NCBI GenBank assembly: GCA_903843285.1
Contig: CAIMPC010000063.1
Location: 4,627-68,626 of the forward strand
DNA: 64,000 nt
DNA from: Candidatus Omnitrophota bacterium
Lineage (GTDB): Bacteria > Omnitrophota > Gorgyraeia > 2-01-FULL-45-10
Direction of reading: 5' to 3'
Shown: positions 4,048-29,131 of the stretch, one piece after another
Layout of the letters: every line of letters begins with the position of its first letter
How positions within the stretch are numbered: the stretch's first letter is position 1
Notes under the pieces: model-generated
What the model was told of the DNA's origin: nothing
The model's database searches: none
What the model saw: only the letters and a program-made list of their open reading frames with translations
Translations under genes and position numbers: made by a program

Positions 4048-4050
4048 CCT

Positions 4051-5656: not shown

Positions 5657-5698
5657 TGTTATAGAGCTGAACTGTTACTTTATATTAGCCCTTACAAA

Positions 5699-6403: not shown

Positions 6404-7164
6404 CCTCGGGCTCCGCAGTAGAATATCTGGTAGGTTGCCCTGATGCTGTCATATTTTGTTAAATAGGCCTCTTCTATCTTACCGAATAGGCCGCGCTTAC
6501 CCGCTGCCAAATTTTCCACTCCTTCTCCCCTTGTGCCGGTATACTTTATATTATCCAGAAGCTGTTTCAGCGAGCCATACTCTTCGGTAATGAATCTCTC
6601 TTCGGTAAAAAATTCCCGAAAACAACTCTTCATGATCTTCGATAAATTTTCTTCGCCCAAAAAGTTCTCTGCACTTATAGATGCGCTGCCGCCAAGCACT
6701 TCTTTCAGTGACTGACCAAGCTCACAAAACGTTAAAGGTCCGAAGACGGAAAATACCATACTGCCACCCGATGTCAGGGCCTGCCTATATTTCCGGACGG
6801 ATGCCTCCAGGTCACTCAGCCATTGAAATGTCGCGTTGGATGTAATGAGATCGAACCCGTCCGAGAAGCTTATTTTTTCCGCGTCGGCCACGATAAATTC
6901 GATCCCGTTATTTCCGCATTTACTCCGGGCGGCATCCACCATGTCATGTGATATATCGAGCGCTGTTATGTTAGCGCCCTTATACTTTTTGCGAAGAAGG
7001 AGAGTGTAATTGCCGGTGCCGCAGCCGATATCCAGAATTTGGCTATATTCTTTCCCGCCCAGCTTATCTATAAGCTCCCTTGCCGCCAAGGATTGAACAT
7101 GCGCATATTTATCATATAGGTGTGAATGCCTCGAAAAGTTCCTCGTGATCACAGATAATGTCAT
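6400..7164 (-). CDS. bioC: malonyl-ACP O-methyltransferase (SAM-dependent)
   Basis: 254 aa with SAM motif ILDIGCGTGNYT, in the bio operon, overlapping bioD by 4 nt. Confidence 0.7.
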   Translation of the reverse strand: MTLSVITRNFSRHSHLYDKYAHVQSLAARELIDKLGGKEYSQILDIGCGTGNYTLLLRKKYKGANITALDISHDMVDAARSKCGNNGIEFIVADAEKISFSDGFDLITSNATFQWLSDLEASVRKYRQALTSGGSMVFSVFGPLTFCELGQSLKEVLGGSASISAENFLGEENLSKIMKSCFREFFTEERFITEEYGSLKQLLDNIKYTGTRGEGVENLAAGKRGLFGKIEEAYLTKYDSIRATYQIFYCGARG

Positions 7165-10861: not shown

Positions 10862-12382
10862 CTATACGCTGATATTGAGCGCTTGCATTAGCCCGGCCGC
10901 CTTATGCAGAGTCTCCTCATATTCTTTCTCAGGATCCGAATCGGCCACTATACCGCCCCCCACCTGAAAATACGCCACTTTATTCTTAATAATAAATGTC
11001 CTGATAGCTATCGATGTATCCATATTTCCATCGAAGCCTATATATCCGATCGCGCCCGTATAAACAGACCTCTTCATCTTCTCGAGCTCATCTATTATCT
11101 CCATAGAGCGTATCTTAGGAGCCCCCGTTATTGACCCGCCCGGAAATGTCGCAAGCAGGCAATCTATCGGATCGACCATTTTTCTAAGTCTGCCGGCTAC
11201 TGTAGATACGAGATGGAAAACATTAGAGTATTTTTCTGTGATAACGGACTCTGTAGGATATATGGAACCATATTCGCATATCCTTCCCAGGTCATTACGT
11301 TCCAGATCCACTATCATTATGTGTTCGGCCATGTCCTTATCGCTCTTTTCGAGCTCGAGCTTAAGCGCTCTATCATGCGCCGAGTCCTTCCCTCTGGGCC
11401 TGGTTCCCTTCACAGGACGCGTCTCGATACGATCTCCCCTCTTCAGTAAAAATCTTTCGGGCGACGAGCTAAGTATCGCCGTATCGCCAAAATTCAGATA
11501 CGAGGCAAATGGCGCAGGGCTGCAGCTCCTCAGCCTGAGATACAGATCGAATGGATCGGCGCAAAATTTCGTCTGGAATCTCTGTGAAATGTTGACCTGG
11601 TATATATCGCCGCTTTTAATATATTCCTTCGCCTTTTTAACTACCGAAGCATAAGAGCGTTTTGAAAAGTTTGATTTTAAGCATCCTGAAGACTGACGCA
11701 AAATATTAGGCCCGTCATTCTGAAGCCCTGGAAGGGCTGAAGAATCTGTGTTCTTTATCCCCCTCCTGCCCACCTGCAAGAGTTTCGACGGTAGACAGGC
11801 AAGTTTCTCTTCGGGATAACGCGTCTCGAGAAACGCCTTCAGGTTCACCTCGGAATGACGCACGCATTTATCTTTCAAATTAATACTCGAGATATAATAG
11901 CGCCGCTTGAGATTATCATAAATTATCGCCGAATCGTAAAATCCCAGCACACAATCCCAGGTATTGAGGTCATCTTTAGAATTATCCGGCAGGTCTTCGA
12001 TGAAGTCCTTCATGTCGTAGGCGAAATATCCGACGGCCCCGCAGGTGAACGGGACCTGTCCCGGTCCCCCGGTAATCTCGTACTTCTTAAGTAGGTTTTT
12101 TATTACGGGAAATGGATTTCCCTTCAGGCTCCGGGCTCTGCCATCACGGTATTTCAATTCTATCGACTCACCTTTTGACCTGAATACGAGGAATGGGTCA
12201 CATCCGATGATCGAAAATCGGCCAAGCTTTTTGGCGTCACAGGCGCTATCCAGAAAAAAACTATACGGGCGGGACTTAATCGATCTGAATACGTCGACCG
12301 GATCCAGCCGGCAATCGATCGATTCTGTGACAGCTTTTAGTCCACTGCGCGGCATATCAGATAAGCGCTTCAGAGACGACAT
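10862..12382 (-). CDS. pabB: aminodeoxychorismate/anthranilate synthase component I
   Basis: 506 aa chorismate-binding C-terminal domain (FPGGSITGAPK, GGIVADSDPE). The true start may be the internal Met near 12355. Confidence 0.75.
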   Translation of the reverse strand: MSSLKRLSDMPRSGLKAVTESIDCRLDPVDVFRSIKSRPYSFFLDSACDAKKLGRFSIIGCDPFLVFRSKGESIELKYRDGRARSLKGNPFPVIKNLLKKYEITGGPGQVPFTCGAVGYFAYDMKDFIEDLPDNSKDDLNTWDCVLGFYDSAIIYDNLKRRYYISSINLKDKCVRHSEVNLKAFLETRYPEEKLACLPSKLLQVGRRGIKNTDSSALPGLQNDGPNILRQSSGCLKSNFSKRSYASVVKKAKEYIKSGDIYQVNISQRFQTKFCADPFDLYLRLRSCSPAPFASYLNFGDTAILSSSPERFLLKRGDRIETRPVKGTRPRGKDSAHDRALKLELEKSDKDMAEHIMIVDLERNDLGRICEYGSIYPTESVITEKYSNVFHLVSTVAGRLRKMVDPIDCLLATFPGGSITGAPKIRSMEIIDELEKMKRSVYTGAIGYIGFDGNMDTSIAIRTFIIKNKVAYFQVGGGIVADSDPEKEYEETLHKAAGLMQALNISV

Positions 12383-12851
12383 CTGTCAGTATTTCAAGGC
12401 CCCTCAGGACCGCTTCGCTTAATGGCGCGCCTAAAGACGTATCTTTAGGCTGAACGGAGATCACAAATATATTCATATCTTCCTTGCCCATCTTAAGCAG
12501 ATCTATAAATAGTTTCGGAGACGGGCTATGCGTGGAAAAGCTGACATTCGCAATGTCATCAACGCCGATTATTTTGGCCTGACCGGGATTCAGGCCCACA
12601 TTCGCCGCATCAACTAGGATCAGCGTATCACAACCGCTCTTCAACATCGGAAATATATAATTTTCCGGAGCTGTGCCGCAGTCGAATAGCGGAATGTTTA
12701 CTTTGCGGGCGCGCAATAGCTCAATGAATTTGGGGCCCAGGCCATCGTCGCCGCGCATTATATTACCTATACCGGCTACCGCAGCCTTGCCGATGATCCT
12801 GTTCTCGAGGGAGGTTTTAAGCCCGGAGATTTGAACGTCAAAATCGCTCAA
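12357..12851 (-). CDS. hydrogenase maturation endopeptidase (HycI/HybD family)
   Basis: 164 aa with GIGNIMRGDDGLGP and an FSTH motif. It is the last gene of the hydrogenase operon. Confidence 0.75.
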   Translation of the reverse strand: MSDFDVQISGLKTSLENRIIGKAAVAGIGNIMRGDDGLGPKFIELLRARKVNIPLFDCGTAPENYIFPMLKSGCDTLILVDAANVGLNPGQAKIIGVDDIANVSFSTHSPSPKLFIDLLKMGKEDMNIFVISVQPKDTSLGAPLSEAVLRGLEILTDVVSEALI

Positions 12852-13458
12852 TTGTAGTTTTTCTTCTGCATTTTGAGCAGAGTATCTTTATCCTGTCCGA
12901 TCGCAAAATAGAGTCTTTTGCCGTCTGTAGAACATCGTCGGCGAATCCCATCGATTTAAGGGATGAGGCAAATAGTGTAGGGTTAGAAAATGCCAAGGAT
13001 CCCAACTTCCTGGATATCCAGGCCAGGTGAGCCTTTGCGGTAATCACATCTCCGCATATCTCGCATAACGCAAGCTCTTTCTCGTCCGTAGATGAGATCA
13101 TTGACTCGCGGTCGAATCCGGCAAGGTCAAACTCGGTGGTATGTCTGATGCCGGGCGGACTATCTTCTCTGGTAGTGCAAAGTGCGCTGCACTGGCCGCA
13201 GTAATGACACTCGTCCAGATGCAGTATCATCTTCCTGGTCGAGCTATCTTTATTAACCACATCGCGGAACTCTATAGCCCTGGCAGGGCATACCATTGCA
13301 CAGGCAGTACATGCTATACACCCTTCGTTGGAATACTCCGGTTTTCCGCGGAACCTCTTGGCGGGATGGTGGTTTTTACGCGGAAAGTCCGATGTATACG
13401 GACCTTTTATGAGCGCCGTCAGCGCTTCCTTCAGTTCTCTCAGTTTAGGATATTTCAT
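12838..13458 (-). CDS. 2x[4Fe-4S] ferredoxin subunit, NuoI/MbhN/HycF-like
   Basis: Contains CIACTACAMVCP and CHYCGQCSALC, plus extra C-terminal CxxC pairs. Confidence 0.65.
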   Translation of the reverse strand: MKYPKLRELKEALTALIKGPYTSDFPRKNHHPAKRFRGKPEYSNEGCIACTACAMVCPARAIEFRDVVNKDSSTRKMILHLDECHYCGQCSALCTTREDSPPGIRHTTEFDLAGFDRESMISSTDEKELALCEICGDVITAKAHLAWISRKLGSLAFSNPTLFASSLKSMGFADDVLQTAKDSILRSDRIKILCSKCRRKTTIERF

Positions 13459-13470
13459 TTAGAGATTGCC

Positions 13471-14073
13471 TCAAAAAAGTTTTACTATCCCCGATGCATG
13501 CCTGGCCAGATTGCCTGTAAAATCCAGCATATCGAAGTACATGTTTGCCGCTATGGGCGTGCATACGCCATTCACAAGTCGTCCGGTATGCTCTTCCCTG
13601 TAACGCTGGACGAGGGACCTTACGCGCAATCCGTTATCGATTATTCGCGCCTTGAGTTCCTCGCTCTTTCCTTTTAAGAATAGGCGCATCATATCCACCG
13701 ATTTCGCCATAATCCCGTACGTCTCATTAAACTGCACCACGCCCATATCGCTGAATAGAAGATGCTCCGCATTCTTAATCTCTATCCTCTCGACCAGATT
13801 GGCGGCTTCATCGCCCATCCTCTCCAGAGTCTCTATAACCTGCTCCCATATAATAAGATCCCTCTTTTCCTGCGCCGTCTTGGCGGTCTTTGCTATGTCA
13901 AAGACCTTCTGAGTAAGCGTCCGCTCCATATCATTAAGCTGCCTCTCGAGGGCCATCGCTCCGGCCAGGTATTCGGCCTTATGCTCCATAAATCCTTTTT
14001 CGACAAGCTCAAGCATCTCATACGTTCTATCGGCCATTACGATGGCCTCCTCCCTCACAGCGTCTATGCTCAT
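13471..14073 (-). CDS. PhoU-domain protein embedded in the hydrogenase operon
   Basis: 200 aa with two helical repeats carrying ERMGDEAANLVE and DFTGNLARHASGIV, of the PhoU/DUF47 type. Confidence 0.5.
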   Translation of the reverse strand: MSIDAVREEAIVMADRTYEMLELVEKGFMEHKAEYLAGAMALERQLNDMERTLTQKVFDIAKTAKTAQEKRDLIIWEQVIETLERMGDEAANLVERIEIKNAEHLLFSDMGVVQFNETYGIMAKSVDMMRLFLKGKSEELKARIIDNGLRVRSLVQRYREEHTGRLVNGVCTPIAANMYFDMLDFTGNLARHASGIVKLF

Positions 14074-14097
14074 AGAGCCGTAGTCCTTTCTATTATT

Positions 14098-14433
14098 TCA
14101 CTTTATTTTATCCATATCTTCGCTATAATCGTCGACTACCGTTCCCGCCCATGGTTTTACACCTGAGCGATAAGCGGCCCTGGCAAGCGCATGAGCCGAG
14201 ACCGGAGCGGTAAGAACTATGAATATCAGGCAGAGCAGCGCCTTAATACTGGTCGCGCCAAACCCCTTATAGCATACCAATCCTAATATGATACCGCATG
14301 TGCCCAGCGTTATACACTTGGCCGATGCCTGGAGACGCGTGTAGACGTCCGGAAACCGTATAAGCCCGAGGCATCCGAAAAAGTCGAACGCAAGCCCTAT
14401 AACTATCAGTACGGAACCTATAGCTTCATTCAT
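14098..14433 (-). CDS. mrpG: Na+/H+ antiporter subunit G (MrpG/MnhG)
   Basis: 111 aa, three TM helices, MnhG-like N-terminus. Confidence 0.7.
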   Translation of the reverse strand: MNEAIGSVLIVIGLAFDFFGCLGLIRFPDVYTRLQASAKCITLGTCGIILGLVCYKGFGATSIKALLCLIFIVLTAPVSAHALARAAYRSGVKPWAGTVVDDYSEDMDKIK

Positions 14434-14785
14434 CGAAATCTTTTCCTTCCAAATATTTAGAGAGCGCCATTATGCCTATGAAACTCTGCAGGGCCCAGGC
14501 TATTCCTATATCTATATACCAATCTCTTCCGGTCGGGATGCTCAATATGGCGCAAAATCCGACTATAAGTATGCCGAGCATATCTATTGCCACTATCCGG
14601 TCGGGCGCGGTCGGTCCGCGCATGATCCTAAATAGGCACATGAACGCCGAAAGTATCAGCCATAGAAATGCCCTACCCAAAAATTCCGACTGCCACCTGA
14701 TTATAGAGCTAATCGGGCAGAAGAGTATAATAATCGCGATGGCGACTATTGTGATCAGTCCTGCTATATAACGGGTCTTCTTCAT
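14426..14785 (-). CDS. mrpF: Na+/H+ antiporter subunit F (MrpF/MnhF)
   Basis: 119 aa membrane protein with RIMRGPTAPDRIVAID, characteristic of MrpF. Confidence 0.7.
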   Translation of the reverse strand: MKKTRYIAGLITIVAIAIIILFCPISSIIRWQSEFLGRAFLWLILSAFMCLFRIMRGPTAPDRIVAIDMLGILIVGFCAILSIPTGRDWYIDIGIAWALQSFIGIMALSKYLEGKDFDE

Positions 14786-14789
14786 AATG

Positions 14790-15296
14790 TTATTCGAATA
14801 TCCTGCTTAGAATATGCTCAAATTTATCCACGACGGCAAGCTTCCTATCATCATCTTTGATGTATAATTTATGGACATATAAAACTCCATTGACCTTGTC
14901 TATGTCTATAGTCGTCATGCCGGGTGTCAACGTAATGGAGCTTGCCAGAAATGTAAGACCTATATCCGATTTTAAACTAACCCTGATCCTTATAGTGCCC
15001 GGCCTTATAAGAAGATCCGGATGTATAACCCTATAGGCAACGTCTATGTTCGCCTTAAGGCATTCCCATAAAAAGACGAAAACGTAGCACACAAACCACA
15101 TCGCACGCCCTAAATACCCCAAAAGACTTATGTTCTTTCGTCCGGACAGATCTTTCGGGCCCATTACACCTGTAGTCATAAACATGACAAACAGCGCTAC
15201 CAATATTCCGGAAATGACATCTTTTATCTCTATCGGCCATGACAACAGTATCCATACGGAAAACCATATCATGAACATCATAGTATTAAATATCAT
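14790..15296 (-). CDS. mrpE: Na+/H+ antiporter subunit E (MrpE/MnhE)
   Basis: 168 aa, two N-terminal TM helices, TLTPGMTT motif. Confidence 0.6.
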   Translation of the reverse strand: MIFNTMMFMIWFSVWILLSWPIEIKDVISGILVALFVMFMTTGVMGPKDLSGRKNISLLGYLGRAMWFVCYVFVFLWECLKANIDVAYRVIHPDLLIRPGTIRIRVSLKSDIGLTFLASSITLTPGMTTIDIDKVNGVLYVHKLYIKDDDRKLAVVDKFEHILSRIFE

Positions 15297-16789
15297 CTGA
15301 TAGCTCCGAATACTATATTCGCGTAGGACGTCCCGTTCATAAGCACGGCTACAGCGCCGTCTATGAATATCTTCCTTATACCCGGCATGAGTATAAACGG
15401 TGCGATAACCACAACGACCGCAAGAGATACCATGGCTGTATTAATCGCGATACATGCTTTTTTCATTACGATGGAAGCATCTGTTCCGACATCGAAAAGG
15501 ACGCATGTCATCGGTTTAAAATAGTAAGCCAGGGTCATAACCCCTACCAACGCGGCGATCAATGCAAGTATGGGATGCCCGGACTGCACGCATGCAAAAA
15601 TTATTATAAGCTTCGCCCAAAATCCACCCATCGGCGGAACACCGCATATCGACAGCGCGCTGAATAAAGCGGGATATCCCGTAGCCGGTGCCCTCCGGAT
15701 AACTCCGGATATTTTATCTATCTGTCTGGTGCCCATGAGACGTTCTATGGATCCCGACGTCAAAAATAGGAGCGACTTACTGATGCTATGGTTAAATATA
15801 TGGACGAGCGCCCCTAAAAAAGCCAGCGGGGTGGCCACGCCAAGCGCCAGAACCACATATCCGATCTGACTGACTGTAGAATATGCAAAGAGTCTCTTTA
15901 TGTCCGTTTGTCCGAAAGCCAATACCGCCCCTATTATCATCGATAACACTCCCAGAGCGATCAGTATCTGGCAAATCTGGACACTTGCGCCGAAGATGCT
16001 AAAAAATATTCTGGCTATTGCATATATACCGAGGGCCTTTATCAATACTCCGGAAAGCATGGCCGAGACTGGCGCAGGCGCAGATGAATGCGCATAGGCA
16101 AGCCATGCATGGAATGGCGCAAGCGCCGCTTTAAGGCCAAACCCCATCAGAAATAGGACGCTGACCAACTGCAATACCCTGGTCGCTCCCGAGGCGGCTA
16201 TCGCGCGCGCGATGCCGGCCATATTGAGCGTCGATGTATGTGCATAGAGAAATGCTATGCCTAAAAGTATGAAGCACGAAGCTACTGAGCCCATAATCGC
16301 ATATTTGAATGACGCTTCGAGCTCGTCCGCCTCGGTACCGAACGCCACGAGAAAATAAGCGGATATCGCCGCTATCTCCATAAAAACGTATAGATTAAAA
16401 ATATCGGAGGCGACGAGCACTCCGTTTATGCCCGCAAGCATTAAAAAGAATAACGCGTAGAACTTCCATTTATCCGTATACTTCTTCATATAGCCCGAGG
16501 AGTAAATCGCGACAAATAACGCCACTAAATTTACCGTGACGAGCATAAATACCGATAATCCATCTACGACGAGCGCAAGGCCCTCCGGAGGTAAAAAACC
16601 TGTTGTCCTATACAGCAAAAGATGGTTAGGGGCGGCATTCACTGACATAAGCGTGAATAGAGCTATTATGAAGAGCGATAGCGTAGTAAAAATTGCAAAT
16701 AAATCCTGGAGGCGCTCATCAGCTTTAGCTATAAGCACTGTTACGAACGCATTCCCCAGCGGCAATATCAGGAAAAAGGGTATCATCAT
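15293..16789 (-). CDS. mrpD: proton-translocating antiporter-like subunit (MrpD / NuoM-N family)
   Basis: 498 aa polytopic protein of the complex I antiporter-like family. Confidence 0.8.
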   Translation of the reverse strand: MMIPFFLILPLGNAFVTVLIAKADERLQDLFAIFTTLSLFIIALFTLMSVNAAPNHLLLYRTTGFLPPEGLALVVDGLSVFMLVTVNLVALFVAIYSSGYMKKYTDKWKFYALFFLMLAGINGVLVASDIFNLYVFMEIAAISAYFLVAFGTEADELEASFKYAIMGSVASCFILLGIAFLYAHTSTLNMAGIARAIAASGATRVLQLVSVLFLMGFGLKAALAPFHAWLAYAHSSAPAPVSAMLSGVLIKALGIYAIARIFFSIFGASVQICQILIALGVLSMIIGAVLAFGQTDIKRLFAYSTVSQIGYVVLALGVATPLAFLGALVHIFNHSISKSLLFLTSGSIERLMGTRQIDKISGVIRRAPATGYPALFSALSICGVPPMGGFWAKLIIIFACVQSGHPILALIAALVGVMTLAYYFKPMTCVLFDVGTDASIVMKKACIAINTAMVSLAVVVVIAPFILMPGIRKIFIDGAVAVLMNGTSYANIVFGAIR

Positions 16790-17127
16790 TATTCTTTAAG
16801 CCTATTTATTTTTGTAATATCGAACGTGCCGTATCTTTCATATATCCTTATTGCCAACGCCACCAACATAAGCATTACGGCCAGGCCTATTACTATGGCG
16901 GTAAGCGCAACCGCCTGCGGCAATGGATCTACGATATTTGTAATTGCTTGGTCGCGCGCAAGTATTGGCGAACGTCCCTGGGCGCGGTAGCCTATCAGAA
17001 TAAAGAACAGATTTACGGCATATTCCATTATGCCTATACCTATAATTATCTTTATGATATTCCTCTTTCTGACCGCGCAAAATAGCCCGATCGAGAATAG
17101 CACCAGACATAAAAAGTATGTGATCAT
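16789..17127 (-). CDS. mrpC: MrpC / NuoK-like subunit
   Basis: 112 aa, three TM helices, NuoK/4L-like. Confidence 0.75.
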   Translation of the reverse strand: MITYFLCLVLFSIGLFCAVRKRNIIKIIIGIGIMEYAVNLFFILIGYRAQGRSPILARDQAITNIVDPLPQAVALTAIVIGLAVMLMLVALAIRIYERYGTFDITKINRLKE

Positions 17128-17138
17128 AATCTAAACCT

Positions 17139-17543
17139 CTATTCGGAGCGTTTATCCGATTTTGGCACCAGTACGAGCGCAATAAATATTACAAAAAGCC
17201 CCACGCTCACTATGATCATCTCCGAGAGCGGCAGGATAAATTCGTTTCCGAAAATAGCCTTCGGATAGCCTTTAAAAATACCATACAGAAAGAGAATGGC
17301 CGCAGTGGCCATAAATAGGCGAAGAGTGCGGGCGCTTAGTAATTTTAAGGAGGCTTCCTTGCCGAATGCCAGCATTACATGGACGAGCGCCAGAGCCACT
17401 ATAACGCCGCCGGCAAATCCGCCGCCCGGAGCATCATGACCGTTAAACGTTATGTAGATGCCATAGAGAAGAATAAATCCGAGCGTGAGCTTTGTCACCG
17501 TCTTAACTATAAACGTCATACCCTTCTCGCTCTGGTGGTTCAT
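17139..17543 (-). CDS. mrpB: MrpB/MnhB subunit
   Basis: 134 aa with GHDAPGGGFAGG, the MnhB signature. Confidence 0.65.
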   Translation of the reverse strand: MNHQSEKGMTFIVKTVTKLTLGFILLYGIYITFNGHDAPGGGFAGGVIVALALVHVMLAFGKEASLKLLSARTLRLFMATAAILFLYGIFKGYPKAIFGNEFILPLSEMIIVSVGLFVIFIALVLVPKSDKRSE

Positions 17544-18070
17544 TATTCAGCGCCATCCCTTCGCCATGCCCTGCGCGCGATAGCAAGCACTCCTATTACG
17601 ACAGCGAATAACACCGAGGCCTCCCCGAGCGTATCGACAGCGCGATACCTGAGCATTATAGATTCCACTATATTGAGGTTCGCCGCCTTACCCTGGACGT
17701 GGCTCAGATATTCCTGCGACGTCTTGATGGCCGGATTCCCAAATGTGTGTATGTTAGCAAATGACAGATATGCAAATACTAAAAATAAGATCAGGAATAT
17801 AATCGTAGATATAGTATTGAAGGCCCACCTACCGGAAGTGCTGAACGGCAGGTCCTTCCTTATAGTAGCGCGTATAAGTATGATAAGGCTCAGTATCTCC
17901 ACGACGAGCTGCATTATAGCCAGATCCGGCGCCTTCATTACAAGAAACGCCATCGACAGCCCTATGCCCACAGCGCCTATCCCGATGACGCTCGACAGCA
18001 GATCTTTTACCTGAACGGCTATTAATGCCGCAGCGATCATGAATACTAATAAAATATTTATCTCTATCAT
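17543..18070 (-). CDS. MnhB-domain protein (MrpA C-terminal domain-like, MbhD/E type)
   Basis: 175 aa with NIVESIMLRYRAVDTLGE, the MnhB-domain motif. Confidence 0.55.
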   Translation of the reverse strand: MIEINILLVFMIAAALIAVQVKDLLSSVIGIGAVGIGLSMAFLVMKAPDLAIMQLVVEILSLIILIRATIRKDLPFSTSGRWAFNTISTIIFLILFLVFAYLSFANIHTFGNPAIKTSQEYLSHVQGKAANLNIVESIMLRYRAVDTLGEASVLFAVVIGVLAIARRAWRRDGAE

Positions 18071-18077
18071 CTATCCA

Positions 18078-19883
18078 TCACCTTAATGATAAGAACAGTA
18101 ACATAGCTATCATCCCGAGAAAACACCATACCAGATACGTCGGTAGCACTCCGTTATGCAGACGCTTAAGCGGCCGGGCTAAGACCTTAATGGCCCGTGC
18201 CGAGAGATAGTAAATATCCAGCCATCCCGACTGAGCCTGCTTACATATTCTGTTTATAGGTTTAATATCGGTGATCGTATCGTAAAACTCCATGCCGGAG
18301 ACGCGAGGTAAACTCTCCGGGTCCGCACCTCCTACAAAATTATCCACAACGCGAAAACTGCCGGGTCTAAACAGCCAGTACATAAGAGCCCCTATAGCTA
18401 TACCTACCAGTATAAGCAGTGCCGCAAGCGTTGAGCCCCATGTCCCTATATAAGTTAAGCTATTACCTATTGAAGGTAGTATCAATATCGGGATCGGGAT
18501 CTTAAAAGCGAAGACGCCGAATATGACGCAGATCGCGGCCAGGATCAGCATGGGCATATACATAAGAGGGCCCACCTCTTTCACTTCGCTCATGCCCTCC
18601 GAACGCCGGCCTAAAAAAACTGCGTGTAATAGTTTCATAAAGCACGCTATGGTTAGCGCGCCGCCGAACATTGCGGCCGAAAGCCATATGACCCATAATT
18701 TACCACCCTGATCTGCCGATTCTATAATGCCCTGATATATCATCCACTTTGATACGAAGCCATTAAATGGCGGAATACCGCAGATGGAGAGCGATGCTAT
18801 AAGACAAGCCGCAAATGTGATCGGCATGGCCCCGGCAAGCCCGCCCAGCCTATCGAGGTCCGAGGTTCCGGCCTTCTTCTCCACCGCCGTACTGGTCAAA
18901 AATAAGCATGCTTTATAGATGACGTGATTCAACATATGAAATAGCCCGCCTGCGATACCTATGACTGTCCCGCTGGCTATTCCTATTATCATATAACCGA
19001 CCTGCGATATAGATGTGTAAGCGAGCAGTTTCTTATAGTTGCGCTGGGCCAGGGCCAAGACTACAGCGAATATTATAGTGGCCGCTCCTGCGATAAGCAG
19101 GATAGTATTCGATATCTTCGTCATTTTAAATAGATCTAAAGAGACGCGCGCAAGCAGATAAATTCCCAGCAGTTTGTCCAGTGAAGTCGGCAGATAAGCG
19201 AGGAAGGAGCCCGATGTCGTCTCGGCTACATCGGGAAACCATGAGTGAAAAGGCATAGCCCCTGCTTTAGCGAAACTTGCCGAGGCGATCGAAAAATACG
19301 CCACATATGTCATGATACCGGCAATAGGAATTTGAATCTTATCCATAGATAGAGTGCCTGTAATAGCCGATACCAGCGCTATGCCGAACAACATTAAGAC
19401 ATCGGTACCGCCTATTATTATAAGAGCTTTACTGCTGGCTTTCGCCGAACATACCGTTTGGTCCAGATTAATAAACAGATATAGCATCAACGCCAGAAAA
19501 CCCCAGAAGATGAGCATAATGATAAGATTATTCGCAAATAGCGCCCCGAGTGAAGCGCCCAACGTAATTAGCATATATCCGAAATATCTTCCAAATGCCT
19601 TATCCGTGGAACCGAAAGAAAATATCGTTATCAGAAATGTAAATAAGGTCATCGCCATACCTATAAAAGAGGAAAGATTATCGGCGCGAAAAATAATCTG
19701 ATCCATATACTTCCAGACCAAAGGTTTTTCGATAAAAATGAATATGCCGCCGGCTAAGCATGCGGCTGATATGATGCCGGCAATAGATTTGGTGATGCCT
19801 TTTAACCTATCCGGCAATGGAAGGCATATTATACCGGATACGATCGGCCCGATGATCAGAAGTAATATTGGATTTGAAATCAT
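18078..19883 (-). CDS. mrpA: MrpA / NuoL-like antiporter subunit
   Basis: 601 aa, about 16 TM helices, NuoL/MrpA family. Confidence 0.8.
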   Translation of the reverse strand: MISNPILLLIIGPIVSGIICLPLPDRLKGITKSIAGIISAACLAGGIFIFIEKPLVWKYMDQIIFRADNLSSFIGMAMTLFTFLITIFSFGSTDKAFGRYFGYMLITLGASLGALFANNLIIMLIFWGFLALMLYLFINLDQTVCSAKASSKALIIIGGTDVLMLFGIALVSAITGTLSMDKIQIPIAGIMTYVAYFSIASASFAKAGAMPFHSWFPDVAETTSGSFLAYLPTSLDKLLGIYLLARVSLDLFKMTKISNTILLIAGAATIIFAVVLALAQRNYKKLLAYTSISQVGYMIIGIASGTVIGIAGGLFHMLNHVIYKACLFLTSTAVEKKAGTSDLDRLGGLAGAMPITFAACLIASLSICGIPPFNGFVSKWMIYQGIIESADQGGKLWVIWLSAAMFGGALTIACFMKLLHAVFLGRRSEGMSEVKEVGPLMYMPMLILAAICVIFGVFAFKIPIPILILPSIGNSLTYIGTWGSTLAALLILVGIAIGALMYWLFRPGSFRVVDNFVGGADPESLPRVSGMEFYDTITDIKPINRICKQAQSGWLDIYYLSARAIKVLARPLKRLHNGVLPTYLVWCFLGMIAMLLFLSLR

Positions 19884-19890
19884 CTGTTCC

Positions 19891-21081
19891 CTACTTTACA
19901 CCCATCTTCTCTCTTATCCTGCGCGTCTTCTCCTGCGAAAGCCTGATAAGATCCTCTGCCTTAAATAGTTCCTTATCGTTGGTATCCACCACTATCGCCC
20001 TCTCGGTACAGCAATAGCAAGGATCTATTGCGGCCATTATTATGGTCGCATCGGACACGGTTTCGCCCACAACGGTCTCTCTGAATGTCGGAAAGTTCAT
20101 GTAGGTCGGGGCGCGTATCTTATGGCGGACCGGTGAATTTGAGCCATCGCATTTTACATAATGGAAACATTCGCCCCGCGGCGCCTCTATCACTCCTATG
20201 CCCTCACCCGGAGGTATATCCTTAGGCTTCGCATCTATAGGCCCCTCCGCCATCTGGTCCAGGCACTGTCTGACGATACTTGCGGATTCAAACATCTCAA
20301 GCACCCTCACCACGGTCTTGGCGAAGACATCGCCTTCTTTCTGCGTAATTACATTCCACTTAACCTTCCTGTAGACACCATATGGATGATCGCGCCTTGC
20401 GTCTATATCTACTCCTGAGGCCCTTGCCACCGGTCCAAGCGCCGAATATTCTATAGCGGCCTCTTTAGTCAATATTCCTACGCCTTTCAGGCGCGCATGC
20501 AGTACTGGATCGTCGAGAATAGCGCCTTTAAGCATATCGAGTTGCTTTAAAAACTCGTCCAACCTGCTTAAGATGTAGGCGACGTGCTCTTTTTCTATAT
20601 CGCGCCTGACTCCGCCTACTTTATGCATAGCATAGTTCTGACGATTACCTGTGATGGTCTCCATTATGTCGCAAATCGGCTCTCTGTACTTCCATCCCCA
20701 CATGAAAACGGTATTGTAGCCAATGAAGTGGCCTGCCAGTCCGAGCCATAACATATGCGAATGTATCCTCTCGAGCTCCTGCGTAATGGTCCTTATATAC
20801 AGCGCCCTCTCGGGAACCTCAATACCGCATATATCCTCTATCGCCTCGACGCATGCTATAGGGTGGCTCGAAGAACATATCCCGCATATCCTCTCCACGA
20901 TAAAAAGCGACTGGTCAAAGCTCTTAGACTCGGATATTTTTTCGATTCCCCTATGGTTATAGCCAATCCTGACATCGACATCCACGACCTTCTCTCCCTC
21001 TACTATCAGCTTCCAAAACTCAGGCTCCTCCTGCAGAGGGTGATATGGCCCTATAGGTATAATTGATTTCTTATCGCTCAT
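19891..21081 (-). CDS. group 4 [NiFe]-hydrogenase large (catalytic) subunit, NuoD/EchE/MbhL-like
   Basis: 396 aa. It carries IPIGPYHPLQEEP...GYNHRGIEK, the L1 motif RICGICSSSH, EAPRGE, and the C-terminal DPCYCCTER (DPCxxCxxR) followed by a ~35-aa extension. Confidence 0.85.
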   Translation of the reverse strand: MSDKKSIIPIGPYHPLQEEPEFWKLIVEGEKVVDVDVRIGYNHRGIEKISESKSFDQSLFIVERICGICSSSHPIACVEAIEDICGIEVPERALYIRTITQELERIHSHMLWLGLAGHFIGYNTVFMWGWKYREPICDIMETITGNRQNYAMHKVGGVRRDIEKEHVAYILSRLDEFLKQLDMLKGAILDDPVLHARLKGVGILTKEAAIEYSALGPVARASGVDIDARRDHPYGVYRKVKWNVITQKEGDVFAKTVVRVLEMFESASIVRQCLDQMAEGPIDAKPKDIPPGEGIGVIEAPRGECFHYVKCDGSNSPVRHKIRAPTYMNFPTFRETVVGETVSDATIIMAAIDPCYCCTERAIVVDTNDKELFKAEDLIRLSQEKTRRIREKMGVK

Positions 21082-21545
21082 TCTTTCCTCGAATCTCTCT
21101 TAGGCACAATGAAACTTTTTCTCATGGGATAGACATCCTGAGGCCAGTCATCCGGCAGGAGGAGCCGTCTCATATCTTGATTGCCTTCAAAGTTCACTCC
21201 AAAGAGCTCGTGTATCTCCCTCTCTATCCACCATGCCGCCTTCATGACATGAGTAACGGTATCTATAGACGGGTTATCTTTATCGTTCAGCATCGTCCTC
21301 ACCGATACTATTAATCCGGACGGATCGTATGCGAAATGATACAGTATCTCTATCTTATCGAAGTCATCTACGGCGCTCGCTATATTAAACCTGAGGCCCA
21401 AGTCTTTAAACATATATCTGACGACCTCCACTATATCTCTGGGATAGATCTCCACATATGCTCTCCTGGACGATTTCTTCTCAACCTTAAGAACCTTATC
21501 ACCGAATCGGTCATTGATCTTTTTTAATACTTCATCCATCATCAT
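21078..21545 (-). CDS. NuoC-like (30 kDa) subunit
   Basis: 155 aa complex I 30-kDa family protein, overlapping the large subunit by 4 nt. Confidence 0.8.
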   Translation of the reverse strand: MMMDEVLKKINDRFGDKVLKVEKKSSRRAYVEIYPRDIVEVVRYMFKDLGLRFNIASAVDDFDKIEILYHFAYDPSGLIVSVRTMLNDKDNPSIDTVTHVMKAAWWIEREIHELFGVNFEGNQDMRRLLLPDDWPQDVYPMRKSFIVPKRDSRKE

Positions 21546-21979
21546 GATCTGATATCCTTCCCGGCCCTTACTTTACCGACCAGTTTTACCAGGGCCGCAA
21601 TAGTGGCCTCGGGCTTAGGCGGGCATCCCGGTATATATGCATCCACCGGTATTATCTCGTCCAGCGGGGCAAGCGTATTATAACTGTCTTTAAATAACCC
21701 GCGCGAGCATCCACATGCCCCATACACCACGACAAAACCCGGTTTCGGCATAGTCTCGTACAGTTTCTTTATTATCGGCACCGCCAACCTGTTGCAGGAT
21801 CCGGTGCATAGCATAATATCCGCATGTTTAATGCTTCCCACCAACACCAGGCCGAAACGCTCCAGATCGAAGCGCGGGGTAAGGGCATCGAGTATTTCTA
21901 TATCGCAGTTGTTACAGCTACCGCTCGATACGTGAAATATGTTTATCGATCTTGTCAGTACGAATTCTCTTAATCCCAT
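21542..21979 (-). CDS. [NiFe]-hydrogenase small subunit, NuoB-like (20 kDa)
   Basis: 145 aa with CNNCDIE...C...GCPP, the cysteines for the proximal [4Fe-4S] cluster. Confidence 0.85.
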   Translation of the reverse strand: MGLREFVLTRSINIFHVSSGSCNNCDIEILDALTPRFDLERFGLVLVGSIKHADIMLCTGSCNRLAVPIIKKLYETMPKPGFVVVYGACGCSRGLFKDSYNTLAPLDEIIPVDAYIPGCPPKPEATIAALVKLVGKVRAGKDIRS

Positions 21980-21980
21980 T

Positions 21981-22919
21981 CTATCTTCCCAAGTATGCTA
22001 AGGCTAATGACAATAACGCCAAGACTGTCACAACTCCCCAGAAGAACTTCATCGCCTGGTCGATACGTACGCGCGGATTTGTATTTTTTACCACTATCAT
22101 TAATATCAGGATCAATAGGTACTCTATCATGGCCTTTACGAGGCCATCAAGGCTTAATTTAATTCCTCCGAAGTACAGGGTTATTAAAAAGACGGGTATT
22201 ACGAATAAGAGCACGGCCCTGGCCAATTTAAATATCGCAAGCGCCTTCCCTGAATATTCAATATACGCCCCCGCCATTATCTCAGTCTCAGCCTCCGGCA
22301 TATCGAACGGCACAAAGCCAAGCTTCGCCTGAATACATATCAACATAACGAAGAAAGATATGCCTCCCGATGGGTTCATGAATATATCGCCATGTGATCT
22401 TTGGTACATTATGATATCGCCCAACCTTATCGCGCACCCACACTTCATTATCACAACTATAAGCGCAAGTATGAACGGCAGTTCGTATGACAGCATGAGC
22501 TTCATCTCTCTCGAAGAGCCAAGCGATGCCAGAGAGTTTGCGGATGCAAAGCCCCCGAGTATCAGAGCGACCGCCGGGATCAGCAGAAGATAGACGACCA
22601 CGATAACATCGCCGATGAAACCGGTGCGCGGAGAACCATTAATAAGAAAGAGTATCGTAGACACAAGGGTTGCGCTCGTAAGAGCTAATACCGGCATCCC
22701 CAGGAACATGGCCCCGGAGACACCGCTGGGTATGAGCGTCTCTTTGTATAAGGCCAGTTTGATCAGGTCTAAAAAGTTCTGATACCATGGCGGCCCGACT
22801 CTCCATTGAAGCCTGGCCGTGACCTTCCTGTCGATCCATCCGACTAAAAGCCCCATCGATCCGGAGAATAAAAGCCCCGGAAATATTAGGAATGCAAATA
22901 TGTATAATAGCGCCGTCAT
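21981..22919 (-). CDS. NuoH/HycD/MbhM-like membrane subunit
   Basis: 312 aa polytopic membrane protein of the complex I subunit 1 family. Confidence 0.8.
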   Translation of the reverse strand: MTALLYIFAFLIFPGLLFSGSMGLLVGWIDRKVTARLQWRVGPPWYQNFLDLIKLALYKETLIPSGVSGAMFLGMPVLALTSATLVSTILFLINGSPRTGFIGDVIVVVYLLLIPAVALILGGFASANSLASLGSSREMKLMLSYELPFILALIVVIMKCGCAIRLGDIIMYQRSHGDIFMNPSGGISFFVMLICIQAKLGFVPFDMPEAETEIMAGAYIEYSGKALAIFKLARAVLLFVIPVFLITLYFGGIKLSLDGLVKAMIEYLLILILMIVVKNTNPRVRIDQAMKFFWGVVTVLALLSLALAYLGR

Positions 22920-22937
22920 GTTATGCTTACTTTCTAT

Positions 22938-23441
22938 CTATCTCTTTTTTGGAAGCTCCAATATCCTGTCCCATTTGTATTTGGTCTTTATTAGAAGATA
23001 CTCCGATGCCCTAAATATACCCTCGTCTTTATTTTCATCGAATTCCCCAAATTTTATGCCCCCATGACTGCAGAACCCTAAACATACAGGGGTCTCTTCC
23101 CCCTTAATTCTTCCCAGACAATAGTCGCAGCATGCCGTCACAAGCGGTATCGTTTCAGGATATATCACGCCGAACGGGCACGCCCTCGAACATGATTTGC
23201 AGGAGGTACAGCGCATCGTGTATCGCTTTAGCGCATTATTCTCTTTAATGAGCTCCAGGGCCTCCCATGGGCATGAGGCGACACATGGCGCGTCATCGCA
23301 CCTTCGGCACACTACGGCGAAATGCGCAAATTCGCGCAGACTGGTTATGCCGTTGTTGTTCGGATGTTGTATATAACTGCATAACATCCCGCACTCTTCG
23401 CAGGCCGAACAGACATCGAGGTCTATAAGTAATCTTTTCAT
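22938..23441 (-). CDS. polyferredoxin, CooF/HycB-like electron-transfer subunit
   Basis: 167 aa with four Cys clusters (CSACEEC, CRRCDDAPCVASCP, CTSCKSCSRACP and CCDYC...C...C). Confidence 0.7.
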   Translation of the reverse strand: MKRLLIDLDVCSACEECGMLCSYIQHPNNNGITSLREFAHFAVVCRRCDDAPCVASCPWEALELIKENNALKRYTMRCTSCKSCSRACPFGVIYPETIPLVTACCDYCLGRIKGEETPVCLGFCSHGGIKFGEFDENKDEGIFRASEYLLIKTKYKWDRILELPKKR

Positions 23442-23445
23442 GTCA

Positions 23446-24276
23446 TCAGTCCCAAATATTGGGCAAATCTTTTATCTTATCGTAAGGGAATACCGGGCCA
23501 TCTTTACAGGCATAATAGGGCCCTATCCTGCAATGACCGCATTTACCGATCCCGCACGACATATTCTTCTCCATCGAGAGATATATCTGATCTTCTTTAA
23601 AACCCAGGTCCATAAGTTTAAATGTTGCAAACTTCATCATAATAGGAGGCCCGCACACTATCGAGACAGCATTATTTACGTCGAGTCCTTCCGTCTTCAA
23701 TATCGTGGTGACCAGCCCTACGTGTCCGCTCCATGAAGCATCTCCCACGTCGCACGATACTAAAACATCTACATGATCGGCCCGGTCCTTCCAGGTACCT
23801 ATCTCATCCTTATAGACTATATCGCCGCTAGAGCGCGCGCCATATCTAAGTATTATCTTCTTATAATCGTTCACTTCGTTAAAGAGCGCGTATAGCAATG
23901 CCCTGAGAGGGGCAAGTCCGACGCCTCCGCCGACTATAAAAACTTCTTTGCCTTTAAATAGATCGAGCGGATATTTTGTTCCATACGGTCCGCGCAGACC
24001 CACGGTATCTCCCGGCTTCAGCTGGTGAATGAGCTTAGTAACGCGTCCTGCGCTCATTATGGTGAAATCGAGCGTACCTTTATGGTCATGGTTAGACGAA
24101 GGAGTGAACGGCGCTTCACCCACGCCCGGCAGGGTCACATCCATGAACTGACCGGCCCTGAAAGAGATATCCTCGCTGGGTTTCAGCGTAAATGTCTTTA
24201 TGTTGGAGGTCTCTTCGGCTACCTTCAGGACTTCCGCGTTAATAAAAGCATATGGATTTTTTTTACAATTAATCAT
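23446..24276 (-). CDS. FAD/NAD(P)-binding oxidoreductase with C-terminal [2Fe-2S] (HydG / AsrB / PyrK-like)
   Basis: 276 aa ferredoxin-reductase fold with the C-terminal cluster CGIGKCGHCRIG...C. It overlaps the upstream gene by 8 nt. Confidence 0.75.
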   Translation of the reverse strand: MINCKKNPYAFINAEVLKVAEETSNIKTFTLKPSEDISFRAGQFMDVTLPGVGEAPFTPSSNHDHKGTLDFTIMSAGRVTKLIHQLKPGDTVGLRGPYGTKYPLDLFKGKEVFIVGGGVGLAPLRALLYALFNEVNDYKKIILRYGARSSGDIVYKDEIGTWKDRADHVDVLVSCDVGDASWSGHVGLVTTILKTEGLDVNNAVSIVCGPPIMMKFATFKLMDLGFKEDQIYLSMEKNMSCGIGKCGHCRIGPYYACKDGPVFPYDKIKDLPNIWD

Positions 24277-25318
24277 GCGGTGGCTTATTCCATCTTTCCA
24301 GTACCAGGCCCTTCAATACTTCCCTTATGTCTATATCTCCGGGGCATGCTTCAATGCACCTACCACAGCCGGTGCAGGCGAAATAGTTGAGCACCGCGGG
24401 AAAGAATTCAAACTTCTTATCGAACCTGTTGCGAAGCCGCTCATAAAGATGTTTTCGAGGGTTGTGGTTTCCGGCGACCCTGGCGAAAGTGTTATATAAG
24501 CAGGCGTCCCATGCCCTGAAGCGTTTTACCCCGGAGGCATCTTTCTCATCGAACAATAAGAAACAGTGGCATGTGGGACAAGCCAGGTTGCACGCCCCGC
24601 ACTCCACGCAGGTCGACGCCATAGCAGTCCAGAATTCGGTCCGGTCGTAATTCTTTTTAACCATGCCCTTAATCTTGGTAGTATTCGGAGTCTCTCTTTT
24701 ACTGATAAAACCTTCTATCTGTTTCGTAACCCTATCGCGAAGCGACTGCCTCACATCGATCGAATGGATCGGCACAAGCTTAAAGAATGTTCTGAAGTCA
24801 TCCACTATCTTTTGCCCTTTTGGGCTTCCCACCTCGACCAAGAAATAATTATCTACCGATGCTATAGATAAATCGAAAAACTTTCTGGGATACGGAGCAC
24901 CTTCCATCGCCATACAGAAACAAGTCTCCTTGGCATAAGTGCAATCTGCGGCAATTATCGTCGTATTCTTTCTGCTCTGGACATAAAAAGGATCCTCGAC
25001 ATCGCCATCCTGAAATACAAAGTCCTGCAGGACAAGGCTCGATAGATCGCAGCCTTTTACTCCGGCCACAATGAGCGGACGCCTGTCTGTCGGATCGGTT
25101 CCGATCATCCTCTCTCTAACCGGGCTTATGAACGATTTAAACGGTTGGCTCTGTCTGATACCACCCAGTTCTATGCTATCTTCTTTGGCAGAGTTAAAAT
25201 CATCGAAAAATAATTTATCACCATTCAAATAAGGCACAACCACTCTACTGCTTATAGCGAGTCTGCCGAATAAGTCGAATAAGTCTTTCTTTGATATGAT
25301 ATAAGTATTATTTTGCAT
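24269..25318 (-). CDS. 4Fe-4S dicluster protein, HydB / AsrA-like (hydrogenase beta-type subunit)
   Basis: 349 aa with CVECGACNLACPTCHCF and a second Cys cluster CTGCGRCIEACP. It is the first gene after the internal promoter. Confidence 0.7.
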   Translation of the reverse strand: MQNNTYIISKKDLFDLFGRLAISSRVVVPYLNGDKLFFDDFNSAKEDSIELGGIRQSQPFKSFISPVRERMIGTDPTDRRPLIVAGVKGCDLSSLVLQDFVFQDGDVEDPFYVQSRKNTTIIAADCTYAKETCFCMAMEGAPYPRKFFDLSIASVDNYFLVEVGSPKGQKIVDDFRTFFKLVPIHSIDVRQSLRDRVTKQIEGFISKRETPNTTKIKGMVKKNYDRTEFWTAMASTCVECGACNLACPTCHCFLLFDEKDASGVKRFRAWDACLYNTFARVAGNHNPRKHLYERLRNRFDKKFEFFPAVLNYFACTGCGRCIEACPGDIDIREVLKGLVLERWNKPPHD

Positions 25319-25343: not shown

Positions 25344-25373
25344 ATTTTAACTCTCGGATGGGACTTCAGTCAA
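25344..25373 (-). promoter_or_regulatory. candidate internal promoter TTGACT-N18-TAAAAT in front of the hydrogenase structural genes
   Basis: On the minus strand, TTGACT (fwd 25368-25373) and TAAAAT (fwd 25344-25349), in the 55-bp gap between hypE and the hydB-like gene. Confidence 0.3.
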
Positions 25374-26408
25374 CTAACAAATCCTGGGAAGCTGATCGCC
25401 TGAAAGCATACCCAGTATCCGCTTGCCGCCAGAAACGGTTTCCAGAATAACTCTTCCGGGGTTATCCTCAGTTACTCTACCGATAGTTCTACTGCCGCGG
25501 CCAACCTTTTCGGAACGCATCGCTTTCAAAATGTCCTTCTCAGCCCCTTTCGCGGCTATTATAATAACCCTGCCCTCGCAGGCGAGATACAACGGATCGA
25601 GGCCGAGAAGCTCACAGGCCTGCCTCACGCCCTCTCGCGCAGGCACTACCGCCTCATCCACTACGATACCGAATTTTGCCGGCGAGGCTATCTCATTAAG
25701 TGTTGTCGCAACGCCGCCTCTGGTGGGGTCGCGCATAAAACGGACCTCTTTCGAGGAGCGCAGCACCTTGCGAATCATTCCGTAGAGAGGCGCGGAATCG
25801 CTCTTCACTAAAGTATCGAATGCTATTCCCTCCCGCTTCGAAATAACACTGATCGCATGGTCACCTATAGGTCCGCTGACGATCACGCAATCACCCGCCA
25901 TTAAATTATTTACCGAGAGATCATCATAATAGACCTCTCCTATCCCGCTTGTGTTAATAAATATCTTGTCACATGCCCCCCGCTCGACAACTTTGGTATC
26001 GCCTGTGACTATTTGAACCTCTGCTGTGGAGGCGGCCCTCGCCATCGAATCTACTATCCGATCCAGCACGCTTCTATCCAGGCCTTCCTCTATGACTGCG
26101 CCGACGGATATGTAAAGAGGCCTGGCGCCGCATACAGACAGATCGTTAACTGTCCCATAAAGTGCAAGGCTTCCGATGTCACCACCGGGAAAAAATATAG
26201 GCTTCACCACATATGAGTCCGTGGTAAACGCTATCTTTTTATCTCCGATCTTTATGATTGCGGAATCCTTCTTTTGATTCAATATGGGATTTGAAAATCG
26301 TTTTAGAAATACGGAATCGATCAGCTTATGCATCTGGCTTCCGCCGCTTCCGTCCGCCATGGTTATATTAGTCATTTTAAATATTTCCGTATTTGTAATA
26401 AGCCGCAC
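25374..26408 (-). CDS. hypE: hydrogenase maturation factor HypE
   Basis: 344 aa AIR-synthase-like protein ending in PRIC. Confidence 0.9.
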   Translation of the reverse strand: MRLITNTEIFKMTNITMADGSGGSQMHKLIDSVFLKRFSNPILNQKKDSAIIKIGDKKIAFTTDSYVVKPIFFPGGDIGSLALYGTVNDLSVCGARPLYISVGAVIEEGLDRSVLDRIVDSMARAASTAEVQIVTGDTKVVERGACDKIFINTSGIGEVYYDDLSVNNLMAGDCVIVSGPIGDHAISVISKREGIAFDTLVKSDSAPLYGMIRKVLRSSKEVRFMRDPTRGGVATTLNEIASPAKFGIVVDEAVVPAREGVRQACELLGLDPLYLACEGRVIIIAAKGAEKDILKAMRSEKVGRGSRTIGRVTEDNPGRVILETVSGGKRILGMLSGDQLPRIC

Positions 26409-29126: not shown

Positions 29127-29131
29127 CCTAT

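Follow-up and report, generated by a model that had tools for sequence, protein, structure and literature searches.

A hun-type operon for a Mrp-linked group 4 [NiFe]-hydrogenase in Candidatus Omnitrophota and the candidate electron donors of its flavoprotein module

Introduction

The Hun supercomplex was described by Glass et al. (2021; bioRxiv 10.1101/536078, Environ Microbiol) from a 16-gene operon, hunA-P, reported in Atribacteria, Firmicutes, Omnitrophica, Elusimicrobia, Bacteroidetes and Kosmotoga isolates. In that description HunA and HunB are AsrAB-like and form the electron-input module HunABC together with HunC, HunD-G are the equivalents of NuoH, NuoB, NuoC and NuoD, HunH-O are of the Mrp/Mnh type, and HunP is the last iron-sulfur subunit of the hydrogenase module. 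The large subunit, HunG, is set apart by its CGIC (L1) and CYCC (L2) motifs. Here we analyse a 64,000-nt stretch of the Candidatus Omnitrophota contig CAIMPC010000063.1 (GCA_903843285.1), hereafter the window, which almost certainly contains such an operon, and weigh which electron donor its input module may use.

Similar clusters have been reported under other names. A Saganbacteria cluster, RX5A, carries asrA, asrB, cooF and a molybdopterin protein and has its nearest relatives in Omnitrophica (Matheus Carnevali et al. 2019; PMC6349859), a 'Mbh-Mrp-oxidoreductase type' was named by Meheust et al. (2020), and Mrp-linked group 4g hydrogenases were recorded in Omnitrophota by Williams et al. 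(2021). In Atribacteria, the oxidoreductase is reported to be co-transcribed with the hydrogenase (PMC6469976). Most recently, a 2026 paper (PMC13582414) tied homologues of the beta and gamma subunits of Pyrococcus furiosus sulfhydrogenase I (SHI) to group 4b clusters and proposed a link to NADPH. These and the RX5A cluster are Mrp-linked group 4 systems with asrA/asrB-like and cooF-like genes; they also carry a molybdopterin subunit resembling formate dehydrogenase (Fdh), degenerate in the former, whereas the window and 60 operons surveyed here do not.

Among enzymes of solved structure, the closest core is that of P. furiosus Mbh (PDB 6CFW, group 4d), which shares a Mrp-related arm and NuoB-, NuoC-, NuoD-, NuoH- and NuoI-type subunits with Hun, but has one antiporter-like subunit, lacks HunABC and takes ferredoxin directly at MbhN. 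In Escherichia coli formate hydrogenlyase (FHL; PDB 7Z0S) and in the Fdh-Mfh-Mnh and carbon monoxide dehydrogenase (CODH)-Mch-Mnh enzymes of Thermococcus onnurineus, a HycB/CooF-like and HycF-like iron-sulfur wire runs between a peripheral dehydrogenase and the group 4 core, and the Thermococcus enzymes have a full Mrp module too. Their peripheral module is a molybdopterin formate dehydrogenase or CODH, whereas in Hun it is a flavoprotein/iron-sulfur pair. The beta and gamma subunits of SHI (PDB 9NEZ, group 3b) align with HunA and HunB over their full length, including cluster cysteines and flavin/nucleotide motifs, but the partner hydrogenase in Hun is membrane-bound and of group 4. Complex I has homologous NuoB, C, D, H, I, K and L/M/N modules, and the NAD(P)H input proposed for Hun would be a further likeness; Hun differs in having a Ni-Fe site in place of the quinone pocket and HunABC in place of NuoEFG.

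Results and discussion

Gene order and identity of the operon

Eighteen co-directional open reading frames (ORFs) lie on the minus strand of the window at 12357-25318, and Pfam and NCBIfam profile searches returned for all of them the domains given in an earlier annotation made from the letters alone (the sequence-only reading). Adjacent genes are spaced by -14 to +24 nt and a terminator search of the operon found no credible terminator inside the string. For the 3' part shown in the public copy of the contig, from MrpC to HycI, an independent gene caller gave identical genes.

The string begins with hunA (24269-25318), a 349-aa HydB/AsrA-like iron-sulfur protein (Fer4_22, 7e-30) whose top NCBIfam matches are ShyB, HydB and AsrA, followed by hunB (23446-24276), a 276-aa HydG/AsrB-like FAD/NAD(P)-binding [2Fe-2S] flavoprotein with FAD_binding_6, NAD_binding_1 and DHODB_Fe-S_bind domains, and by hunC (22938-23441), a CooF/HycB-like ferredoxin (Fer4_11, 1e-11; HycB 7z0s_B, 7.7e-10). 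The hydrogenase genes come next: the NuoH/MbhM-like membrane subunit hunD (21981-22919; NADHdh, 1.7e-63), the NuoB-like small subunit hunE (21542-21979; Oxidored_q6, 1e-25), the NuoC-like hunF (21078-21545; Complex1_30kDa, 1.8e-28) and the [NiFe] large subunit hunG (19891-21081; Complex1_49kDa, 3.6e-71, with NiFeSe_Hases at the N-terminus, 1.2e-18).

A complete Mrp-type module, HunH-O, is encoded downstream. It comprises the 601-aa MrpA/NuoL-like antiporter subunit hunH (18078-19883; Proton_antipo_M, 4e-54), the MbhD+MbhE fusion hunI, equivalent to the MrpA C-terminus (17543-18070; PF13244, PF20501), the MnhB/MrpB-like hunJ (17139-17543; PF04039, 1e-17), the MrpC/NuoK-like hunK (16789-17127; Oxidored_q2, 5e-25), the MrpD-like antiporter subunit hunL (15293-16789; Proton_antipo_M, 8e-64), and the MrpE, MrpF and MrpG genes hunM (14790-15296; MNHE, 3e-36), hunN (14426-14785; MrpF_PhaF, 5e-17) and hunO (14098-14433; PhaG_MnhG_YufB, 9e-26). 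The two antiporter-like subunits match MbhH, MbsH' and MrpA (HunH) and MbhH (250 bits) and MrpD (235 bits; HunL). A PhoU-fold accessory gene (13471-14073; PhoU, 1.3e-8) separates hunO from hunP, a NuoI/HycF-like subunit with two [4Fe-4S] motifs (12838-13458; Fer4_7; NCBIfam formate hydrogenlyase Fe-S subunit, 4e-24; HycF 7z0s_F, 1.8e-12), and the string closes with a hycI-like maturation endopeptidase gene (12357-12851; HycI, 1.5e-14).

Domain content and order equal those of hunA-P exactly and HunG has the CGIC and CYCC motifs, hence there is very little doubt that the locus is a hun operon (hunA-P plus the PhoU-fold gene and hycI) encoding a Hun supercomplex. All 16 published genes are present in the published order, which is also that of related loci, with a complete Mrp module and AsrAB-like proteins without AsrC; the PhoU-fold gene between hunO and hunP, hycI at the end and an adjoining hypFCDE string are what differs from the published description. 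The rarity and novelty implied by the sequence-only reading are not supported: the complex is already known, named, widespread and reported in the same phylum, and the novelty of the locus is low.

The hydrogenase core belongs to group 4

HunG contains RICGICSSSH at L1 and DPCYCCTER at L2, the latter followed in the translation by exactly 35 residues to the C-terminus, in line with the cleavable tail of about 35 residues that the sequence-only reading had given; DPCYCCTER is present in 81 of 81 large subunits compared. This tail, whose cleavage is predicted, and the hycI gene in the operon correspond to the C-terminal extension and the dedicated endopeptidase of group 4 hydrogenases. Other group 4 traits are the NuoB-like small subunit with one 4Fe-4S cluster, for which Cys22, Cys25, Cys89 and Cys119 of HunE are invariant in 76 of 76 orthologues, and the NuoH-like and antiporter-like membrane subunits.

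Against solved structures, in which group 4 was represented by 4a, 4d and Mbs only, HunG scored best with P. furiosus MbhL (312 bits, 5e-92) and E. coli HycE (286 bits, 4e-84), while group 3 large subunits reached at most 85 bits (5e-23 or weaker). A group 3b sulfhydrogenase large subunit was ruled out as a candidate, with scores far under the NCBIfam cut-offs for ShyA (57 bits, cut-off 700) and HydA (41 bits, cut-off 880). We assign the enzyme to the Mrp-linked group 4 [NiFe]-hydrogenases, as had been claimed before, and not to group 3, the placement that the sequence-only reading had listed among its possible refutations. The finer HydDB class, 4g, is the published label of HunG (Glass et al. 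2021; bioRxiv 10.1101/536078) and is used here as such. The closest relatives of HunG are from Candidatus Omnitrophota metagenome-assembled genomes (MAGs; 80-92% identity). By their domains, HunD-G and HunP make up the hydrogenase core, with HunABC as a peripheral module.

The input module resembles sulfhydrogenase beta and gamma subunits

HunA matched SHI beta over its full length (9nez_B, 4e-33), each of its 15 Cys pairing with a Cys of SHI beta, and all 15 are invariant in 62 of 62 orthologues. HunB likewise matched SHI gamma over its full length (9nez_C, 5e-57), and its EAPFTPSS flavin motif, GGGxGxAP, CGPP and four [2Fe-2S] Cys are invariant in 67 of 67 orthologues. As the surveyed loci come from about ten named phyla, this invariance argues for selection on nucleotide binding. 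The two proteins are true homologues of SHI beta and gamma, encoded in the same overlapping gene string as the hydrogenase, as had been read from the sequence; the accompanying statement that such pairs normally partner group 3b or 3d enzymes stands for 3b but not for 3d. HydB/HydG-type subunits belong to group 3b, and group 3d has a HoxEFU-type diaphorase.

Both proteins fall far below the NCBIfam equivalog cut-offs of the sulfhydrogenase families (HunA 143 vs 690 bits, HunB 200 vs 650 bits) and also below those of AsrA (114 bits, cut-off 323) and AsrB (224 bits, cut-off 289). With AsrC also absent from the window ORFs, an anaerobic sulfite reductase AsrABC was ruled out. Furthermore, HunA and HunB are paralogues distinct from the beta/gamma subunits of group 3b, since the group 3b-like pair encoded beside hun in one relative is only 26% and 37% identical to them. 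This relative, a Planctomycetales MAG (L057), has a group 3b-like operon with HydB-, HydG-, large-subunit- and protease-like genes at 410-4958, directly upstream of hun.

The remaining wire recalls E. coli FHL, in which FdhF is connected to the hydrogenase by the HycB/HycF pair. HunC, with 16 conserved Cys that correspond to four 4Fe-4S sites, resembles HycB, and HunC and HunP together look like that pair. In addition to two 4Fe-4S motifs, HunP contains four further Cys (C132, C135, C194 and C197, as CxxC...CxxC) that are invariant in 57-58 of 58 orthologues and may form an additional metal site; the first pair aligns with a C..C of E. coli HycF.

The flavoprotein pair is a stable part of hun operons

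Related loci were surveyed in one genome per GTDB species, which gave at least 597 confirmed relatives. For the best 80 of these (64-86% large-subunit identity), ORFs were called and matched to the window proteins. This detailed set includes 38 Omnitrophota and 17 Planctomycetota-labelled MAGs; the rest are from Clostridia, Elusimicrobiota, Hydrogenedentota, Fermentibacteria/Aegiribacteria, Nitrospirota, Atribacterota, Spirochaetes and Deltaproteobacteria. The same architecture was found in a MAG from the same Ocean Drilling Program (ODP) 1244 site as the reference HunG, RXG63129 (L032, 68% identity), and in an Atribacterota MAG (66%; L044), which indirectly supports a placement of the window's HunG with that reference.

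Wherever at least 4.4 kb of sequence was available 5' of the large subunit, in 60 loci, hunA and hunB lay directly upstream without exception, with median spacings of -8 nt (A/B), +3 nt (B/C) and -4 nt (C/D). Frequent loss of the beta/gamma genes in relatives, which the sequence-only reading had named as a result that would count against it, was thus not observed. When pairwise-identity matrices were compared, HunG correlated with HunA at r = 0.85 and with HunB at r = 0.82, no less closely than with NuoB (r = 0.80; Mantel p = 0.001). This linkage, and a co-divergence like that of the core small subunit, indicate that the flavoprotein pair is a stable, co-inherited part of the operon, not an occasional neighbour.

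These results bear on the idea that HunAB serve as an outlet to sulfur, polysulfide or another acceptor, with H2 or ferredoxin being oxidised, or form a separate soluble enzyme that happens to be encoded nearby. Homologues of HunAB do occur in sulfhydrogenase and in anaerobic sulfite reductase, and Bird et al. mention possible sulfur reduction. However, neither AsrC, a siroheme protein nor another catalytic subunit that could partner the pair was found among the annotated ORFs of the window, so a separate sulfite or polysulfide reductase unit, also named beforehand as a possible refutation, is not upheld. A separate enzyme is further opposed by gene spacing, with an 8-nt overlap of hunA and hunB followed by gaps of 4 nt to hunC and 18 nt to hunD, by linkage in 60 of 60 loci with co-divergence equal to that of core subunits, and by the L057 genome, which has beta/gamma genes of its own for its group 3b enzyme. 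We regard this explanation as highly improbable.

A gene for the NADH sensor Rex (Put_DNA-bind_N + CoA_binding) lies directly 5' of hunA in 17 of 57 loci and 3' of the operon in four more, such that it abuts the operon in 21 of 57 (for example at 4225-4893 in L009). Large ORFs 5' of hunA in relatives were also considered as a possible Fdh-like subunit and proved to encode a UvrD helicase, a permease and an SLT transglycosylase. In L036, a 689-aa molybdopterin oxidoreductase is encoded in a separate unit upstream of hun (358-5502), and BLAST found the same 689-aa ORF arrangement in L032, a Clostridia MAG; both also have, upstream of hun, rex and another HydB-like gene that is divergent (28-29% identity). 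No other surveyed operon had a molybdopterin gene, and in these two it belongs to the separate upstream unit, which may be formate-dehydrogenase-like. In a Nitrospirota MAG (L034), a 3.8-kb insert at 3155-6968 separates hunB from hunC and contains ORFs of 153, 668 and 310 aa, the latter two without a Pfam match.

Which donor feeds the module

Cofactor ligands for a whole chain from FAD to the Ni-Fe site are present in the sequence. In the path that we propose, NAD(P)H would bind HunB at its FNR-type FAD site, and electrons would pass from the [2Fe-2S] cluster of HunB through the [4Fe-4S] clusters of HunA to the four clusters of HunC, and from there through the two clusters of HunP and the single cluster of HunE to the Ni-Fe site of HunG. 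This layout is drawn by analogy with formate hydrogenlyase. The plan would copy FHL and the Fdh/CODH-Mbh-Mrp enzymes of Thermococcus, except that a sulfhydrogenase-type beta/gamma diaphorase takes the place of the substrate dehydrogenase.

Overall, a Hun complex with an NAD(P)H-fed electron path is probably the best explanation of the locus, and we lean, by a narrower measure, towards NAD(P)H as the redox partner of Hun. NAD(P)H is favoured because the nucleotide-binding flavoprotein is invariant across phyla, because the nearest characterised homologue of HunB oxidises NADPH, because AsrB is taken to be the subunit that binds NADH in Asr, and because the rex gene abuts the operon in the loci described above. 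We also count in its favour the reported co-transcription in Atribacteria, the likeness of HunC and HunP to HycB and HycF, and that the annotated ORFs of the 64 kb include no siroheme sulfite reductase (AsrC, NIR_SIR), formate dehydrogenase, CODH, second hydrogenase or other catalytic partner. The sequence gives no call between NADH and NADPH, since YGARSSGD in HunB resembles both the NADH-specific NqrF (YGARSLRE) and the NADPH-preferring SHI gamma (NTARYGKD). As an idea, the NAD(P)H donor put forward in the sequence-only reading is not new: NADH was floated earlier in the literature, and NADPH was proposed for related clusters in 2026.

Several points weigh against an NAD(P)H donor. Rex also controls ferredoxin-linked fermentative genes, so the rex linkage is only suggestive. 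The window itself has no rex gene, and a search for the Rex operator (TTGTGAA-N4/N6-TTCACAA, up to three mismatches) found none upstream of hunA and elsewhere only chance-level matches. The assembly of HunAB onto HunC is deduced from gene order only, and HunP, by analogy with MbhN, could dock ferredoxin and offer a second entry point. In the literature on Hun or Kosmotoga, no biochemical work was found beyond Glass et al. (2021; bioRxiv 10.1101/536078), who assign ferredoxin as the donor.

In that published proposal for the hun operon, HunABC take electrons from reduced ferredoxin and exergonic H2 evolution pumps H+ or Na+ as in Mbh. HydDB lists group 4g as putatively ferredoxin-coupled, the Hun core is nearest to the ferredoxin-dependent MbhL, and the energetics of outward pumping are straightforward with ferredoxin. 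Nevertheless, an FNR-type FAD/NAD(P) domain that is intact and invariant would be needless in a plain ferredoxin acceptor, and the pyridine-nucleotide links of the HunB homologues in SHI and Asr point away from it. Moreover, Mbh accepts ferredoxin at MbhN without any extra module. A purely ferredoxin-driven Hun therefore seems unlikely to us, though it is a reading to be taken seriously.

In a dual-input or confurcating Hun, the chain would be fed with ferredoxin (at HunP or HunC) as well as with NAD(P)H (at HunB), an arrangement similar to the three-way branched model of 2026 for related clusters with an Fdh-like subunit. That model, based on AlphaFold 3, was published for group 4b clusters combining SHI beta/gamma with the Fdh-like subunit (PMC13582414), and the homology of HunP to the ferredoxin-docking MbhN would fit it. 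Against it, no in-operon molybdopterin subunit was found in the window or in any of the 60 surveyed operons, and no HdrA-, NuoF- or NfnB-like bifurcating module is encoded at the locus. HunB has a flavin of the NfnA/PyrK type, and in Nfn bifurcation does not take place at that flavin. We consider this arrangement improbable.

The ion-translocating NAD(P)H:H+ oxidoreductase mechanism suggested in the sequence-only reading is plausible, and it is the one that we would prefer. With NAD(P)H as the donor, forming H2 costs about 18 kJ/mol at standard state; because the reaction is endergonic, the membrane arm of a fermenter would most likely draw on a Na+/H+ gradient to release H2. Ion pumping would be expected only at very low H2 or in the direction from H2 to NAD(P)+. 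Hun may thus work reversibly, as an NAD(P)H:H+ oxidoreductase that translocates Na+/H+ and forms an H2-evolving counterpart of complex I; we put this possibility forward tentatively, as one falling slightly short of probable. Pyridine nucleotides are not known to serve any characterised group 4 hydrogenase.

Accessory genes and genomic surroundings

The published set of 16 Hun subunits does not include the PhoU-like protein. Its AlphaFold2 model has a predicted local distance difference test (pLDDT) score of 94.5 and matches PhoU structures in Foldseek at template modelling (TM) scores of 0.85-0.89, which lets us predict a PhoU fold with confidence. The gene was found in 18 of the 80 loci (L001, L002, L006, L015, L026, L029, L034, L037, L047, L061-L065, L068, L069, L077 and L080). 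It is always inside the operon, yet at three insertion points (after hunG, hunO or hunD), which suggests a functional tie to hun. Some sources label its homologues 'phosphate:Na+ symporter'.

Upstream of hunA, at 25374-30456 on the same strand, Pfam identified a string of hydrogenase maturation genes consisting of a short hypF, hypC, hypD and hypE, interrupted by a 556-aa secreted ORF; the end of hypE and the start of hunA are 55 nt apart. The HypF at 29329-30456 has 375 aa and only the Kae1-like C-terminal domains, without the acylphosphatase, zinc-finger and YrdC parts. Of 20 related loci in which hypF is linked to hun, 15 share this short form (348-376 aa), so it is a lineage trait and not a truncation. 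HypC is encoded at 29132-29338 by an ORF starting MCLAIP. The 556-aa ORF (27456-29126), between hypC and hypD, has an N-terminal signal or transmembrane segment, overlaps the start of hypD by 4 nt and had no Pfam match at E <= 1e-5. Since BLAST found a homologue in none of the 80 related loci, the ORF seems to have been inserted into the hyp string in this lineage specifically.

The sequence-only reading had placed a candidate promoter in the hypE-hunA spacer. A promoter-like site is indeed present there (25344-25373, minus strand; TTGACT-18-TAAAAT, 10 of 12 matches), but such sites occur in the region at chance density (38 found, 35 +/- 6 expected). Downstream of the operon, Pfam identified a chorismate-binding enzyme and a class IV aminotransferase, and the remainder of the 64 kb is housekeeping in character (lipid A synthesis, BamA, DnaB, FtsH, purine and histidine synthesis).

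Implications

The locus itself adds little beyond a further member of the Hun family and a PhoU-fold accessory gene. Hun-type operons are, in turn, very common in uncultured anaerobes, as the survey shows, and some Omnitrophota MAGs were found to have no hydrogenase other than a Mrp-linked one of group 4g (Williams et al. 2021), the class published for HunG. How hun carriers keep their redox balance and save energy at the thermodynamic limit depends on whether NAD(P)H or ferredoxin feeds the complex, and the invariant nucleotide-binding flavoprotein and frequent Rex linkage sharpen this question. If Hun does act as an NAD(P)H:H+ oxidoreductase, fermenters could dump NAD(P)H as H2 at the cost of their ion gradient, or could conserve energy from H2-dependent NAD(P)+ reduction.

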